This document shows positions 14,638 through 64,000 of a DNA stretch of 64,000 nucleotides, piece by piece. The first letter of the stretch is position 1. Every line of letters begins with the position of its first letter. The translations under genes and the position numbers were made by a program. The notes beneath the pieces are model-generated. The model had not been told where the DNA came from, did not search any database, and saw nothing but the letters and a program-made list of their open reading frames with translations. The DNA is taken from assembly GCF_988243305.1 (NCBI RefSeq), contig NZ_OZ547136.1; one strand, given 5' to 3'.

Positions 14638-14649
14638 CACGCTACCGCC
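14638..14649 (-). promoter_or_regulatory. ops element (GGCGGTAGCGTG) within a JUMPStart sequence in the wza leader; RfaH-dependent antitermination site
   Basis: Plus strand 14638-14649 reads cacgctaccgcc, whose reverse complement is GGCGGTAGCGTG, the 12-nt ops consensus. It lies about 180 nt upstream of the wza start on the coding strand. Confidence 0.75.
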
Positions 14650-15117
14650 CCTGGCTTTTTAGCTACCAATACACTGATTTAGCTTAATTTTTAAAACCCT
14701 CTCAACATACAGTCGTTGATGAGAAAGGGTTATTGCGGAAATTAACTTCCGAATATAAGGTGACATTATGGTAATTGAATATTGGCTCTCCAATAATGCA
14801 GGAGGAAGTGTTACAGCTAACGGAATAGCAGGCAAGGTAACAATTCGGCAATTGGCTATTTTTAAGAATTATATTAAGTGTCATTCAACATGGTTTTTAG
14901 GAGTTTCTTTAGGTTGACAATATTTAATATAGTGTCTCCACATGCGATATTTCTTAAATAATGTTTTATTATTACCACTTTTAATTCAGGGATAATGTGA
15001 GGTTATAAACCTCAAATAATATGAGATAAATAGTGCTGCAACATTGCATTTTTGCCCCGATTTATCCATGATCGAATTGTGACATTTGTCATACAACGAA
15101 TAGGTTTTGTACTTACT

Positions 15118-30301: not shown

Positions 30302-30480
30302 AAGAAATCCTTTCTTAGAGAATTATTGAGGTCCGGTATCATACCGATTGCAATAATGAAATAAGAGCAAACGAAGAAACTTTCAGAATTAGGCCCGGCG
30401 GCGCAGAAAATTTTGCTATTCGCCTCGCAAGAACGGAGAGCCGTCGATTGACACTAAGGGCGGAGTGACATAATTTCAGG

Positions 30481-30628
30481 AGTGAGGGTTAGGGAGAGGT
30501 TTCTCCCTCCCCCTGGTGTTCTTAGTAAGCCTGGAAGCTAATCACTAAGAGTATCTCCAGTATGATGACGTGCTTCATCATAACCCTTTCCTTATTAAAA
30601 GCCCTCTTCTCCGGGAGAGGGTTTCCCG
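30481..30628 (+). ncRNA. sibA: Sib-family antisense sRNA (antitoxin), copy 1; boundaries approximate
   Basis: Plus-strand region fully antisense to the ibs ORF, preceded by a CATAAT -10-like hexamer (30469-30474) and ending at a GC-rich hairpin plus T-rich tract (gccctcttctccgggagagggtttcccgttt, ~30601-30628). Confidence 0.5.
30522..30581 (-). CDS. ibsA: Ibs-family type I toxin peptide, copy 1 (19 aa: MMKHVIILEILLVISFQAY)
   Basis: Minus-strand ATGATGAAG...TAA ORF read by hand; matches the Ibs hydrophobic peptide pattern MMK-h(15)-AY. Confidence 0.6.
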   Translation of the reverse strand: MMKHVIILEILLVISFQAY

Positions 30629-30815
30629 TTTCAGCGTCCCGCTGAAATCGTCGGCTTACCTCCTTTCGCCCTGAATGCAGTCTATCGCTAACGCGTGAAC
30701 AAAATAGTTTCCTCTGTGATTATTGCGTAACGACTCGCAAAGAATATTTGCTGGCAGGATCGCAGACTGAAAAGCCTGCAGATTGACAATCTTATCGTGA
30801 AGGCATAATTTCAGG

Positions 30816-30958
30816 AGTGAGGGTAGAGCGGGGTTTCCCCCGCCCTGGTAGTCTTAGTAAGCCGGGAAGCTTATGACTAAGAGCACCACGATGATGATCC
30901 ACTTCATCATGACCCTTTCCTTATTTAAGGCCCCTTCCTCGGGAGGGGCTTTCCCGTT
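30816..30958 (+). ncRNA. Sib-family antisense sRNA, copy 2; boundaries approximate
   Basis: Same arrangement as copy 1: CATAAT at 30804-30809, hairpin ggccccttcctcgggaggggcttt followed by a T-rich tract ending ~30958. Confidence 0.5.
30854..30910 (-). CDS. Ibs-family type I toxin peptide, copy 2 (18 aa: MMKWIIIVVLLVISFPAY)
   Basis: Minus-strand ORF read by hand inside repeat unit 2. Confidence 0.6.
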   Translation of the reverse strand: MMKWIIIVVLLVISFPAY

Positions 30959-31143
30959 TCAGCGTCCCGCTGAAATCGTCGGCTTACCTCCTTTCGCCCT
31001 GAATGCAGTCTATCGCTAACGCGTGAACAAAATAGTTTCCTCTGTGATTATTGCGTAACGACTCGCAAAGAATATTTGCTGGCAGGATCGCAGACTGCAA
31101 AGCCTGCAGATTGACAATCTTATCGTGAAGGCATAATTTCAGG

Positions 31144-31284
31144 AGTGAGGGTAGAGCGGGGTTTCCCCCGCCCTGGTAGTCTTAGTATGCTGGGTAGCTA
31201 ATCACTAAGAGCACCACGATGATGAGTAGCTTCATCATGACCCTTTCCTTATTTATGGCCCCTTCCTCGGGAGGGGCTTTCCCG
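31144..31284 (+). ncRNA. sibB: Sib-family antisense sRNA, copy 3; boundaries approximate
   Basis: Same arrangement: CATAAT at 31132-31137, hairpin and T-tract ending ~31284. Confidence 0.5.
31182..31238 (-). CDS. ibsB: Ibs-family type I toxin peptide, copy 3 (18 aa: MMKLLIIVVLLVISYPAY)
   Basis: Minus-strand ORF read by hand inside repeat unit 3; closest to IbsB as I recall it. Confidence 0.6.
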   Translation of the reverse strand: MMKLLIIVVLLVISYPAY

Positions 31285-44520: not shown

Positions 44521-44604
44521 TTAATTTCGATTATTTTTCCCGGATGGAAAATTCTTAGAAACCGATCACATACAGCTGCATTTATTAAGGTTATCATCCG
44601 TTTC

Positions 44605-44691
44605 GCTGAAAAACATAACCCATAAAATGCTAGCTGTACCAGGAACCACCTCCTTAGCCTGTGTAATCTCCCTTACACGGGCTTATTTTTT
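44605..44691 (+). ncRNA. cyaR: CyaR (RyeE) Hfq-dependent, CRP-activated sRNA
   Basis: GCTGAAAAACATAACCCATAAAATGCTAGCTGTACCAGGAACCACCTCCTTAGCCTGTGTAATCTCCCTTACACGGGCTTATTTTTT read on the plus strand matches my recollection of E. coli CyaR, including the terminator hairpin and U-tract. Confidence 0.8.
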
Positions 44692-59245: not shown

Positions 59246-60046
59246 TCACCACCACGCGTGGAAGTGGTGAACCGGACCAATACCGTGACCAACTTCCAGC
59301 GTGTCGGCCTGGGCTAACGCCGATGAAAGCCAGCTTTTTGCCTCCTGTACGGTGTCAGCCCAGTTTGTATGGCGCGGGCGTAGTGCAGCCAACGCCGCAG
59401 AGAGTGTACAACCAGTGCCGTGGGTGTTTTTGGTCATAATGCGCGGTGCGGTAAACCGTTGTTCACCCTCGCGGGTAAACAGCCAGTCCGGGCTTTGCTC
59501 ATCATCCAGATGACCACCTTTCATTAGCACTGCGCCACAGCCCATCGCCAACAGCGATCGCCCTTGTTCCAGCATTTCCTGTTCGGTGCGCGCGTGTGGC
59601 GCGTCGAGCAAGGCGGCAGCTTCGGGCAAGTTTGGCGTTATTAATGAAACCTGTGGCAATAATCGACTGCGCAGCGTAGCAACCGCCGAAGGTGAAAGCA
59701 GCGGGTCGCCGCTTTTTGCCAGCATAACGGTGTCGAGTACCACGTTTTGGATCTGATAACGTTGCAACCTTTCTGCCACCGCTTCAACAATATCGGTTTC
59801 CGCCAACATACCGATTTTAGTGGTGTCGATTCGCACATCGCTGAACACCGAATCGAGCTGGGCGGCGACAAAATCAGGCTCAATGCGATACACCGACTGT
59901 ACGCCACGGGTATTTTGCGCCACCAGTGCAGTAATCACTGAGCAACCATAAGCGCCAAGTGCCGAGAAGGTTTTAAGATCGGCCTGAATCCCCGCACCAC
60001 CACTCGGATCAGTACCGGCAATCGTCAGAGCGTTAATTCGTTTCAT
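59246..60046 (-). CDS. thiD: Hydroxymethylpyrimidine/phosphomethylpyrimidine kinase
   Basis: 266-aa [37 protein letters not shown], a canonical ThiD N-terminus. Confidence 0.93.
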
Positions 60047-60831
60047 GCCTGCACCTCCTGCGTCAATTGCCAGAGCGCATCAAGGAAATGTGGAACAAAA
60101 CTGCCTGGCCCCTCGCTTCTGGCGGCTGCGCGTTCTCCGGCTTGTTTCATCCAGTGACAGGCAGATGCGACATTTTCCAGCATATCGCCTGGTAACGCAC
60201 AACAGGCAGCGACAACCGCCGATAATGCACAGCCAGTTCCTACCACTTTGGTCATTAACGGATCGCCACCGTGAATACCAATGATACGATGTCCATCGGT
60301 AACATAATCCATCTCGCCAGTGACCACGACGATTGCGCCAGTTTCCCGTGCCAGTGTTTGTGCAGCGGGTATCGCGTTAGCTGCGGCGTCAGTGGTATCC
60401 ACTCCCCGTCCACCATTAGCAACGCCAGCTAATGCCATGATTTCCGAAGCATTACCACGTATGGCGGTTGGCTTATGAGACAGAAGTTCCAGACAAAAAC
60501 GGCGGCGATAATCGAGTGCACCCACCGCTACTGGATCAAGCATCCAGGGTGTTTGAGAGCGTTTTGCCTGTTCAACGGCGGCACGCATCGCCTGTGCGCG
60601 TGGCTGCGTCAGTGTGCCAACGTTAATCAGCAACGCACTGGCGATAGCCGCAAACTGACTGGCCTCTTCGGTTTCGATGACCATTGCTGGCGATGCACCG
60701 AGCGCCAGTAAGGTATTGGCAGTAAAGGTTTGCACCACATCGTTGGTCATGCAGTGCACAAGAGGGGAATGTTGGTGAAAAAGGTGTAACGCGTGCGCAG
60801 ATTGCGCGGAACTCAGCAGGTCGACTTGCAT
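60043..60831 (-). CDS. thiM: Hydroxyethylthiazole kinase
   Basis: 262-aa [39 protein letters not shown]; 4-nt overlap with thiD. Confidence 0.93.
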
Positions 60832-60975
60832 AGTTTGCTCCTGCCATAACGTGAAGAAGCAATGACCTGGTGGTCCGTGACTTCCCTACGCTGGCATTAT
60901 CCAGATCAGGTGATACGGGTATTTCTCAGCCTTCACGCAGAAGGGCACCCCGAGTCGTTTGATTGCGATGATAAA
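60832..60975 (-). promoter_or_regulatory. TPP (thi-box) riboswitch in the thiM 5' leader
   Basis: Reverse complement of ~60878-60955 reads GACTCGGGGTGCCCTTCTGCGTGAAGGCTGAGAAATACCCGTATCACCTGATCTGGATAATGCCAGCGTAGGGAAGTC, containing the conserved CTGAGA and thi-box core and lying directly upstream of thiM. Confidence 0.9.
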
Positions 60976-61053: not shown

Positions 61054-61326
61054 TTATTTGATATAAGAATCCAGCACCTTCAGAACGACATCCAGATCTT
61101 CTTCACGTTTTAGCTCATCCCCCTGGTGAACGATGTGTTCCGTCAGATGACCTTTAATCACTTCCCGCATCAGACCGTTTACCGCGCCACGGATAGCAGC
61201 AATCTGTTGTAAAACTGCAGCGCATTCGTGCGGCTCGTCGAGCATTTTCTTGAGCGCCACGACCTGGCCCTGAATCTTACTGGCACGCGCTTTCAGTTTC
61301 TGTTTATCACGGATGGTATGAGACAT
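61054..61326 (-). CDS. rcnR: Ni(II)/Co(II)-responsive transcriptional repressor RcnR (CsoR/RcnR family)
   Basis: 90-aa [32 protein letters not shown]...; divergent from rcnA. Confidence 0.92.
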
Positions 61327-61374: not shown

Positions 61375-61409
61375 TACTGGGGGGTAGTATCAGGTACTGG
61401 GGGGGAGTA
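61375..61409. promoter_or_regulatory. Two RcnR operator sites (TACT-G6/7-N-AGTA) in the rcnR-rcnA intergenic region
   Basis: TACTGGGGGGTAGTA at 61375-61389 and TACTGGGGGGGAGTA at 61395-61409, read directly; matches the known G-tract-containing RcnR operator. Confidence 0.85.
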
Positions 61410-61446: not shown

Positions 61447-62271
61447 ATGACCGAATTTACAACTCTTCTTCAGCAAGGAAACGCCTGGTTCTTCATCCCC
61501 AGCGCCATCTTACTTGGTGCGCTTCATGGCCTGGAACCAGGGCACTCAAAAACGATGATGGCGGCGTTTATCATCGCCATCAAAGGCACCATTAAACAGG
61601 CGGTGATGCTCGGACTGGCAGCAACCATTTCGCATACCGCAGTGGTCTGGTTGATTGCCTTTGGCGGGATGGTGATCAGCAAGCGCTTTACTGCTCAATC
61701 AGCAGAACCGTGGCTCCAGTTGATTTCCGCAGTGATCATTATTGGCACCGCGTTCTGGATGTTCTGGCGTACCTGGCGCGGCGAACGAAACTGGCTGGAG
61801 AATATGCACGAGCATGATCATGAGCATCATCACCACGATCACGAAGATCACCACGACCATGGACATCATCACCATCACGAACATGGCGAGTATCAGGATG
61901 CCCATGCACGAGCCCATGCCAATGACATTAAACGACGCTTTGATGGTAGAGAGGTCACCAACTGGCAAATTTTGTTATTTGGCTTAACCGGTGGCCTTAT
62001 CCCCTGCCCGGCAGCAATTACCGTGCTGTTGATTTGCATTCAGTTGAAAGCCCTGACACTGGGCGCAACACTGGTCGTCAGTTTCAGCATTGGCCTGGCG
62101 TTAACGCTGGTCACCGTAGGCGTTGGCGCAGCAATCAGCGTTCAGCAGGTCGCAAAACGCTGGAGCGGATTTAACACTCTCGCTAAACGCGCCCCCTATT
62201 TTTCCAGTCTGTTGATTGGCTTAGTTGGTGTGTATATGGGCGTACATGGCTTCATGGGCATAATGCGATAA
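61447..62271 (+). CDS. rcnA: Nickel/cobalt efflux protein RcnA with His-rich cytoplasmic loop
   Basis: 274-aa ORF MTEFTTLLQQGNAWFFIPSAILLGALHGLEPGHSK with the loop HEHDHEHHHHDHEDHHDHGHHHHHEHGEY. Confidence 0.93.
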   Translation: MTEFTTLLQQGNAWFFIPSAILLGALHGLEPGHSKTMMAAFIIAIKGTIKQAVMLGLAATISHTAVVWLIAFGGMVISKRFTAQSAEPWLQLISAVIIIGTAFWMFWRTWRGERNWLENMHEHDHEHHHHDHEDHHDHGHHHHHEHGEYQDAHARAHANDIKRRFDGREVTNWQILLFGLTGGLIPCPAAITVLLICIQLKALTLGATLVVSFSIGLALTLVTVGVGAAISVQQVAKRWSGFNTLAKRAPYFSSLLIGLVGVYMGVHGFMGIMR

Positions 62272-62489: not shown

Positions 62490-62670
62490 ATGACCATTAA
62501 AAATAAGATGTTGCTGGGTGTGCTTTTGCTGGTTACCAGTGCCGCCTGGGCCGCACCAGCCACCGCGGGTTCGACCAATACCTCGGGAATTTCTAAGTAT
62601 GAGTTAAGCAGTTTCATTGCTGACTTTAAGCATTTCAAACCAGGCGATACCGTCCCAGAGATGTACCGCA
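62490..62670 (+). pseudogene. rcnB: rcnB (yohN) 5' fragment, interrupted after about codon 60 by IS10
   Basis: MTIKNKMLLGVLLLVTSAAWAAPATAGSTNTSGISKYELSSFIADFKHFKPGDTVPEMYR, then the frame runs into IS10 terminal sequence (..IRRSPHNFPKA*). RBS ggagag precedes the ATG at 62490. The remainder of the gene would lie beyond the window. Confidence 0.8.
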
Positions 62671-63999
62671 TAAGGAGATCCCCTCATAATTTCCCCAAAG
62701 CGTAACCATGTGTGAATAAATTTTGAGCTAGTAGGGTTGCAGCCACGAGTAAGTCTTCCCTTGTTATTGTGTAGCCAGAATGCCGCAAAACTTCCATGCC
62801 TAAGCGAACTGTTGAGAGTACGTTTCGATTTCTGACTGTGTTAGCCTGGAAGTGCTTGTCCCAACCTTGTTTCTGAGCATGAACGCCCGCAAGCCAACAT
62901 GTTAGTTGAAGCATCAGGGCGATTAGCAGCATGATATCAAAACGCTCTGAGCTGCTCGTTCGGCTATGGCGTAGGCCTAGTCCGTAGGCAGGACTTTTCA
63001 AGTCTCGGAAGGTTTCTTCAATCTGCATTCGCTTCGAATAGATATTAACAAGTTGTTTGGGTGTTCGAATTTCAACAGGTAAGTTAGTTGCTAGAACCCA
63101 TGGCTCCTTTGCCGACGCTGAGTAGATTTTAGGTGACGGGTGGTGACAATGAGTCCGTGTCGAGCGCTGATTTTTTCGGCCTTTAGAGCGAGATTTATAC
63201 AATAGAATTTGGCATGAGATTGGATTGCTTTTAGTCAGCCTCTTATAGCCTAAAGTCTTTGAGTGACTAGATGACATATCATGTAAGTTGCTGATAGGTT
63301 TCCAGTTTTCCGCTCCTAGGTCTGCATATTGTACTTTTCCTCTTACTCGACTTAACCAGTACCAACCCAGCTTCTCAACGGATTTATACCATGGCACTTT
63401 AAAGCCAGCATCACTGACAATGAGCGGTGTGGTGTTACTCGGTAGAATGCTCGCAAGGTCGGCTAGAAATTGGTCATGAGCTTTCTTTGAACATTGCTCT
63501 GAAAGCGGGAACGCTTTCTCATAAAGAGTAACAGAACGACCGTGTAGTGCGACTGAAGCTCGCAATACCATAAGTCGTTTTTGCTCACGAATATCAGACC
63601 AGTCAACAAGTACAATGGGCATCGTATTGCCCGAACAGATAAAGCTAGCATGCCAACGGTATACAGCGAGTCGCTCTTTGTGGAGGTGACGATTACCTAA
63701 CAATCGGTCGATTCGTTTGATGTTATGTTTTGTTCTCGCTTTGGTTGGCAGGTTACGGCCAAGTTCGGTAAGAGTGAGAGTTTTACAGTCAAGTAATGCG
63801 TGGCAAGCCAACGTTAAGCTGTTGAGTCGTTTTAAGTGTAATTCGGGGCAGAATTGGTAAAGAGAGTCGTGTAAAATATCGAGTTCGCACATCTTGTTGT
63901 CTGATTATTGATTTTTGGCGAAACCATTTGATCATATGACAAGATGTGTATCTACCTTAACTTAATGATTTTTACCAAAATCATTAGGGGATTCATCAG
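62671..63999 (-). mobile_element. IS10 insertion sequence (IS4 family), about 1329 bp
   Basis: Right terminus at 63999 matches the IS10 outside end (reverse complement CTGATGAATCCCCTAATGATTTTGGTAAAAATCATTAAG). Left end contains GAGATCCCCTCATAATTTCCCCAAAGCGTAACC, the IS10 inside end. Left junction is placed to within a few nt. Confidence 0.88.
62684..63892 (-). CDS. IS10 transposase
   Basis: 402-aa ORF MCELDILHDSLYQFCPELHLKRLNSLTLACHALLDCKTLTLTELGRNLPTKARTKHNIKRIDRLLGNRHLHKERLAVYRWH..., full length and apparently intact. Confidence 0.93.
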   Translation of the reverse strand: MCELDILHDSLYQFCPELHLKRLNSLTLACHALLDCKTLTLTELGRNLPTKARTKHNIKRIDRLLGNRHLHKERLAVYRWHASFICSGNTMPIVLVDWSDIREQKRLMVLRASVALHGRSVTLYEKAFPLSEQCSKKAHDQFLADLASILPSNTTPLIVSDAGFKVPWYKSVEKLGWYWLSRVRGKVQYADLGAENWKPISNLHDMSSSHSKTLGYKRLTKSNPISCQILLYKSRSKGRKNQRSTRTHCHHPSPKIYSASAKEPWVLATNLPVEIRTPKQLVNIYSKRMQIEETFRDLKSPAYGLGLRHSRTSSSERFDIMLLIALMLQLTCWLAGVHAQKQGWDKHFQANTVRNRNVLSTVRLGMEVLRHSGYTITREDLLVAATLLAQNLFTHGYALGKL

Positions 64000-64000
64000 T

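Follow-up and report, generated by a model that had tools for sequence, protein, structure and literature searches.

The locus analyzed here most closely resembles the rcnR-rcnA-rcnB locus of Escherichia coli K-12, where two RcnR operators accompany an rcnA gene (yohM, b2106) whose 274-residue product contains a 28-residue loop with 17 histidines. RcnA has been described as an efflux system that works with a periplasmic partner, RcnB, and the RcnR operators follow the consensus TACT-G6-N-AGTA (PMC7055735). A central, cytoplasmic His-rich loop has been predicted for RcnA homologues, that of the E. coli protein is given as containing 17 histidines, and the mechanism of RcnA resistance is described as unsettled, since the protein might either export metal or chelate it by means of the His-rich loop (PMC11247825). 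The RcnA proteins of cable bacteria share this family architecture, in that their His-rich loop is central, probably cytoplasmic and of a length that depends on the lineage; these loops are 100–123 aa long, contain 33–53 His, are fixed throughout one clade and have been proposed to be linked to a Ni cofactor, whereas the differences seen in E. coli occur within the species and are far smaller (PMC11247825).

Repeat variation in the orthologous genes of other enteric bacteria provides a second set of precedents. STTR5, a standard MLVA locus of Salmonella, is a CACGAC repeat within yohM (PMC5183578, PMC1781188); it resembles the repeats of the E. coli rcnA loop in being a His-Asp hexanucleotide in the orthologous gene, with a copy number that differs between close isolates. 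S. Typhimurium isolates recovered after in vivo passage carried a 54-nt, (HD)9 deletion in rcnA (PMC6760104). In Klebsiella pneumoniae, rcnA holds MLVA locus 27, a highly diverse repeat of the unit CATGGT in 0–19 copies (PMC3948817); as in E. coli, a hexanucleotide varies in copy number within this gene, but the species and the unit (CATGGT rather than GACCAC) are different. In the searchable literature we found no paper that links rcnA to an MLVA locus of E. coli. Both the His-rich loop of RcnA and length variation in the orthologous repeats are already known, and the finding described below is real but ordinary.

Disordered His-rich loops between the transmembrane helices of a metal exporter also occur in CDF transporters, such as plant MTP1 and the ZnT family, and to our knowledge these loops are the sole precedent for the idea that such a loop tunes specificity. 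The CDF transporters are unrelated to RcnA in fold and family, RcnA belonging to the NicO family (PF03824); a Pfam scan of the RcnA protein studied here returned only NicO, DsbD_2 and SfLAP, without Cation_efflux, and so places it outside the CDF family.

The window, by which we mean the whole 64,000-nucleotide stretch of contig NZ_OZ547136.1 that was analyzed, contains rcnA at 61447–62271 (+), an open reading frame of 274 codons plus stop. Its product is RcnA of the NicO family, as indicated by a match to PF03824 over residues 13–273 (E=6.2e-70, 236 bits, cutoff 27.7) and by a full-length match, above the curated threshold, to the nickel/cobalt efflux transporter profile NF007454 of NCBIfam (560.5 bits, cutoff 195, residues 1–274). 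The gene is 100% identical in DNA to that annotated as rcnA by RefSeq in E. coli NRZ14408. Divergently encoded upstream is rcnR (61054–61326, −), the Ni(II)/Co(II)-responsive repressor (PF02583; NCBIfam equivalog NF011613, 197 bits), and the rcnR-rcnA intergenic region holds two candidate RcnR operators (61375–61409) that were read off the sequence as matches to TACT-G6-N-AGTA: TACTGGGGGGTAGTA at 61375–61389 and TACTGGGGGGGAGTA at 61395–61409, 5 nt apart. RcnR would control rcnA through these two operators. On the 3′ side follows rcnB, of which only the 5′ part remains ahead of an insertion sequence. The operon context is thus that of K-12, apart from the disruption of rcnB. Nickel and cobalt efflux and resistance are known for K-12 RcnA, with which the window protein shares about 98.5% amino acid identity; the two genes differ at 13 nt and 4 of 274 aa, and three of the four substitutions (E122G, H125Y and D134H, window residue first) lie in the loop. 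Two further open reading frames overlap the loop and were rejected as genes: one of 89 aa at 61699–61968 (−), whose V/M-rich product is what the antisense of His codons yields, and one of 81 aa at 61742–61987 (+, in another frame), whose I/T-rich product reflects frameshifted His codons.

The disruption of rcnB sets the window apart from K-12. The 5′ part of the gene, codons 1–60 of 112, occupies 62490–62670 (+); identity to the rcnB of NRZ14408 ends at offset 181, and BLAST alignment extends to query position 399, which corresponds to 62670. Alignment to other copies identifies what follows, at 62671–63999 (−), as a 1329-bp IS10-family (ISVsa5-like) element, with a transposase ORF at 62684–63892 (−; NCBIfam IS4-family transposase, 404 bits) and an Rfam match to RNA-OUT at 63885–63954. 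A search of 5,426 complete genomes of E. coli recovered this rcnB/IS junction in none of them, rcnB homology stopping at 62670 in every match. The target duplication predicted for the insertion is TGTACCGCA; its second copy is not visible because the window ends at 64000. The inside end of the element (62671–62674) reads TAAGGAGATCC in place of the usual CTGAGAGATCC, so that the window has TAAG-GAGATCCCC where strain YPE10 has the usual CTGA-GAGATCCCC. The same variant end is present in E. coli strain 142 (positions 301–304 of the fetched locus), whose copy is 100% identical over the aligned element and is flanked by a 9-bp duplication, TGCTCTGCA; this duplication suggests that the variant end is transposition-competent. 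The strain from which the window comes would probably count as a natural mutant of rcnB, and such a loss of rcnB could itself alter Ni/Co handling.

Rfam matches to a TPP riboswitch upstream of thiM (60866–60962, −), the CyaR sRNA (44603–44688, +) and a JUMPstart element (14638–14676, −) are ordinary and consistent with an E. coli chromosomal region. In the window the riboswitch is followed by thiM-thiD (60043–60831 and 59246–60046), whereas in NRZ14408 (347–5516 of the fetched locus) a TPP riboswitch beside rcnR is followed by genes for a tyrosine recombinase, a DUF1837 protein and a DEAD/DEAH helicase; the differing neighbors indicate that NRZ14408 has an inserted island at that position. 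Three tandem matches to the antitoxin sRNA family SIB (141–146 bits each) lie at 30448–31253 (+). At the corresponding locus K-12 presumably has two SIB genes, sibA and sibB, and SIB copy number may therefore differ between the window and K-12.

The loop of the window protein comprises residues 121–148 (61807–61890, +) and has the sequence HEHDHEHHHHDHEDHHDHGHHHHHEHGE: 28 residues, of which 17 are His, 4 Asp, 5 Glu and 2 Gly, followed by Y149, which ends at 61893. The preliminary description had drawn attention to a His/Asp/Glu-rich segment at 61790–61915 and taken it for the known metal-binding loop of RcnA. The string that it quoted is present in RcnA and lies within the coordinates given, with margins of 17 and 22 nt, and the segment is indeed the known His-rich loop of RcnA. 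Histidine makes up only 6 of the 246 residues outside the loop; at this background of 2.3%, the binomial probability of at least 17 His in 28 residues is about 2e-21, and the His content of the loop is therefore far beyond chance. The loop codons are CAT (9), CAC (8), GAG (3), GAT (3), GAA (2), GAC, GGA and GGC (1 each), in essential agreement with the earlier picture of repetitive CAT/CAC/GAT/GAA codons. Being made up of His, Asp and Glu codons (CAY, GAY and GAR), the loop-encoding DNA forms a low-complexity repeat in phase with the codons.

This repetition is imperfect. Tandem Repeats Finder reported arrays of period 18 (3.2 copies, 74% match), period 9 (3.1 copies, 78%) and period 12 (1.9 copies, 90%), all of them with mismatches. 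The longest perfect tandem repeats are CAT over 8 nt (2.67 copies) and CATCAC over 12 nt (2 copies), and the perfect tracts of greatest length read CATCATCA and CATCACCATCAC. The several perfect head-to-tail copies that characterize a VNTR are not found in the window allele, which in this respect is unlike STTR5, as it has only 1–2 copies of such a unit and no perfect array.

Alignment divides the loop into two parts. Residues 122–139 (61810–61863, +) form a hypervariable part, in which the indels were located both in an alignment of 18 protein alleles and in the nucleotide loops of 9 alleles. Residues H140–Y149 (HHHHHEHGEY; 61864–61893, +) form the core at the C-terminal side of the loop, with HHHHHEHG conserved in all alleles and no change at H140, H142, H144, E145, H146 or G147 in any aligned allele (n=18). 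Substitutions are likewise unevenly distributed: the window and K-12 alleles differ at 4 of 84 nt in the loop and at 9 of 741 nt elsewhere (Fisher p=0.035), which marks the loop as a substitution hot spot, as would fit a disordered segment rich in ligands that is under relaxed constraint outside its conserved core. A 10-nt direct repeat, ATGCACGAGC, flanks the loop at 61804 and 61904 and was considered as a deletion substrate; it was dismissed because the 100-nt spacing would break the reading frame and because such an allele was not seen. A separate 8-nt direct repeat, GCCCATGC, with 12-nt spacing lies at 61900–61919 and encodes AHARAH immediately C-terminal to the loop. A 270-aa protein record from E. 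coli (P0006) lacks exactly four residues (AHAR) at this site, which therefore represents a second small in-frame indel site.

The loop is flanked by hydrophobic segments, one ending near residue 107 and the next starting near residue 175. By a crude hydropathy and charge count, the long hydrophilic stretch at about 108–175 contains 8 Lys and Arg residues, more than any other RcnA loop, and a cytoplasmic location therefore fits the positive-inside rule. The loop is most likely cytoplasmic and disordered. A PDB sequence search turned up no solved NicO-family relative, returning only weak and seemingly spurious matches to the His-rich segment, namely His-tag-like sequences and a cobaltochelatase aligned over residues 53–148, and the searchable literature on the RcnA His-rich loop consists of descriptive mentions, with no experimental dissection found. 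As the central loop of an inner-membrane Ni(II)/Co(II) efflux protein, it would offer many imidazole and carboxylate ligands, which may bind Ni and Co and then either hand the metal to the membrane pathway or gate that pathway. Alternatively, the loop could be a cytoplasmic sponge or chelator that buffers or stores metal outside the transport pathway, in which case its length would set binding capacity only. The exporter and chelator roles of RcnA are, as noted above, both under consideration (PMC11247825), and 17 His with 9 Asp and Glu in 28 residues resembles Ni-storage sequences. Nevertheless, we consider the sponge function improbable: the loop sits within a conserved polytopic membrane protein of the NicO family that hardly varies in its transmembrane parts, RcnA is partnered by periplasmic RcnB in what is described as an efflux system (PMC7055735), and an induced membrane protein would seem an inefficient buffer.

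Length variation between strains had been anticipated in the preliminary description, which regarded identical loops in all sequenced alleles as the outcome that would overturn it. In E. coli the loop varies in both length and sequence, ranging from 15 to 43 aa with 8–23 His, and the span of the region differs from that of the window allele by −27 to +45 nt. Of the complete genomes of E. coli, 5,426 in all, 5,365 contain rcnA, and about 60 lack it or have only part of it. A systematic sample taken down the ranking (60 of the 5,365) contained 51 genes of 825 nt, seven of other lengths (804, 831, 849 twice, 852, 858 and 870 nt), one frameshifted pseudogene of 868 nt and one remnant. The K-12 loop, HGHDYEHHHHDHEHHHDHGHHHHHEHGE, shares the 28-aa length of the window loop. 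Longer loops are those of an N3-type allele (30 aa), of an allele with a duplicated 18-nt DHEHHQ unit (36 aa, or 42 aa with three copies in a pseudogene) and of O157-type alleles with (DH)6, (DH)7 and (DH)9 (37, 39 and 43 aa, respectively); shorter ones are found in a (HE)4-type allele (21 aa) and in protein records of the same 90% cluster, which has 1,397 distinct members (15–17 aa). Among the translated, aligned alleles, all length differences lie within the loop and are multiples of 3, and RcnA outside the loop is almost invariant.

Some long-read assemblies are error-prone at low-complexity repeats, and the sample included one allele annotated as frameshifted, which raises the question of whether the length polymorphism is an artefact of assembly or polishing. 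This is most improbable. The loop differences are all multiples of 3, with (GACCAC)n changing in steps of whole 6-nt units; each allele recurs, in a lineage-specific manner, across independent complete genomes that number from tens to hundreds; loop-confined variation is also present in independent protein records; and in Salmonella and Klebsiella the variation of the orthologous repeat is detected by PCR-based MLVA. The frameshift, in the rcnA of E. coli 2017.06.05CC, lies near codon 46 and thus outside the 42-aa loop with its three 18-nt units. Another E. coli copy of rcnA is interrupted by an IS3-family element, and these two cases indicate that the gene is inactivated now and then. Loop indels themselves keep the reading frame, unlike those of a phase-variable contingency locus, where a shift in frame or in promoter spacing turns expression on and off.

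The frequency of the different lengths was estimated with a 204-nt query comprising the loop and its 60-nt flanks, which matched 5,363 complete E. coli genomes. This census consists of identity bands together with systematic samples of 40–60 rows per search, rather than of every allele. Identity was at least 99% in 1,860 genomes, 95–99% in 2,826, 90–95% in 128 and 80–90% in 549. All 52 sampled rows at or above 95% identity had the length of the window allele, whereas all seven sampled full-length rows below 95% differed from it (by +15, +24, +24, −21, +21, +27 and +33 nt). From the identity bands and the lengths of the sampled rows on either side of 95%, about 87% of the 5,363 genomes, from many lineages, share the 28-aa length, and about 677 (12.6%) differ by at least 12 nt. 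With the K-12 allele as query the genomes divided in the same way, and 1,504 of them were within 1% of this allele. Small indels were rare in the 28-aa class, 1 (+6 nt) among about 103 sampled rows; indels of 3–9 nt in the 95–99% band can be put, as an estimate only, at roughly 1%. The dominance of one length could reflect stabilizing selection rather than a low mutation rate.

Three families of other lengths were isolated by E-value-restricted searches: an O157-type (GACCAC)n family in 242 genomes (spans of 231, 237, 243 and 249 nt), a family with the 18-nt DHEHHQ unit in 171 genomes (228, 219 and 216 nt) and a short (CACGAG)4 family in 141 genomes (183, 189, 177 and 186 nt). In the fetched alleles the O157-type spans correspond to n=6, 7, 8 and 9 copies of GACCAC, which is the CACGAC unit of Salmonella STTR5 in another register. 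The strains of this family are overwhelmingly labelled O157:H7. Against an n=7 query, 64 of its genomes were at least 99% identical and 158 were 95–99% identical, the sampled ones among the latter mostly having n=6. Copy number (n=6–9) thus differs among genomes labelled O157:H7, and in this respect the locus as a whole behaves as expected of a VNTR.

The number of perfect copies distinguishes the alleles: 6.3–9.3 of GACCAC in the O157-type, 4.3 of CACGAG and 2.6 of the 18-nt unit, against at most 2–3.7 of any unit in the window and K-12 alleles. Long perfect arrays occur in precisely the alleles that vary in length. The copy-number differences within O157:H7 are the clearest sign of ongoing slippage, and mutation pressure that scales with repeat perfection would explain this pattern without selection on length. 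The earlier proposal that the codon run is prone to slippage therefore applies to the O157-type (GACCAC)6–9 alleles; it does not extend to the window allele, which is degenerate, with no perfect array beyond 2–2.7 copies, and hence is a poor slippage substrate. With no long perfect array and an approximately 87% majority class, the window codon run looks stable in length.

The same observations bear on whether loop-length alleles are adaptive, the number and spacing of His, Asp and Glu tuning the specificity or capacity of RcnA and the codon run serving as an evolvability device. The His-rich loops of CDF transporters, e.g. AtMTP1, influence metal selectivity, which we count in favor of this proposal. 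The wide range of His counts in E. coli loops (8–23), the changes in GACCAC copy number among O157:H7 genomes and the location in the loop of three of the four amino acid differences between the window and K-12 proteins point in the same direction. Authors working on Salmonella have speculated that Ni/Co resistance may be affected when STTR5 is of extreme length or when (HD)9 is deleted (PMC5183578, PMC6760104). However, about 87% of genomes, in many lineages, keep one length, and the alleles that vary are precisely the ones whose arrays are perfect, the outcome expected from mutation pressure by itself. Since each repeat unit is a whole number of codons, an in-frame outcome is automatic and uninformative about selection, and on/off switching is absent; functional data on RcnA loop alleles were not found in the searchable literature. 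For the statement in the preliminary description that length variation can tune metal specificity, neither our computations nor that literature gave any support. On balance, adaptive tuning seems unlikely. A bolder version would make the alleles non-neutral in a specific manner, with the number and spacing of His and Asp ligands setting an efflux threshold or a Ni-versus-Co preference, perfect (GACCAC)n arrays in O157-type E. coli and STTR5 in Salmonella acting as a fast-mutating tuning knob for metal homeostasis across hosts or niches, and an effect in the source strain of the window that adds to the rcnB knock-out; this we regard as improbable.

We therefore favor, with a probability of roughly 0.8, the explanation that the segment is the His-rich Ni/Co loop of RcnA, in which slippage has generated a series of in-frame alleles around a degenerate majority form. 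Replication slippage, or unequal recombination between repeats, would add or remove whole codons, and the loop would tolerate such changes, giving an in-frame allele series of 15–43 aa around the HHHHHEHG core. We infer that these length changes are nearly neutral. The rate would be set by repeat perfection, such that the perfect (GACCAC)6–9 alleles vary among O157:H7 genomes, and the degenerate 28-aa allele of the window would represent a long-lived majority form.

The importance of these observations beyond good annotation is small, since the loop is a textbook feature and the orthologous repeat already serves to type strains of Salmonella and Klebsiella. If loop length were shown to change Ni/Co handling, the repeat would turn from a typing marker into a functional polymorphism, but nothing here points in that direction. 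What our analysis adds for E. coli is a rough census, in which the 28-aa class is dominant, at least three other families are present, and (GACCAC)n is variable within O157:H7.
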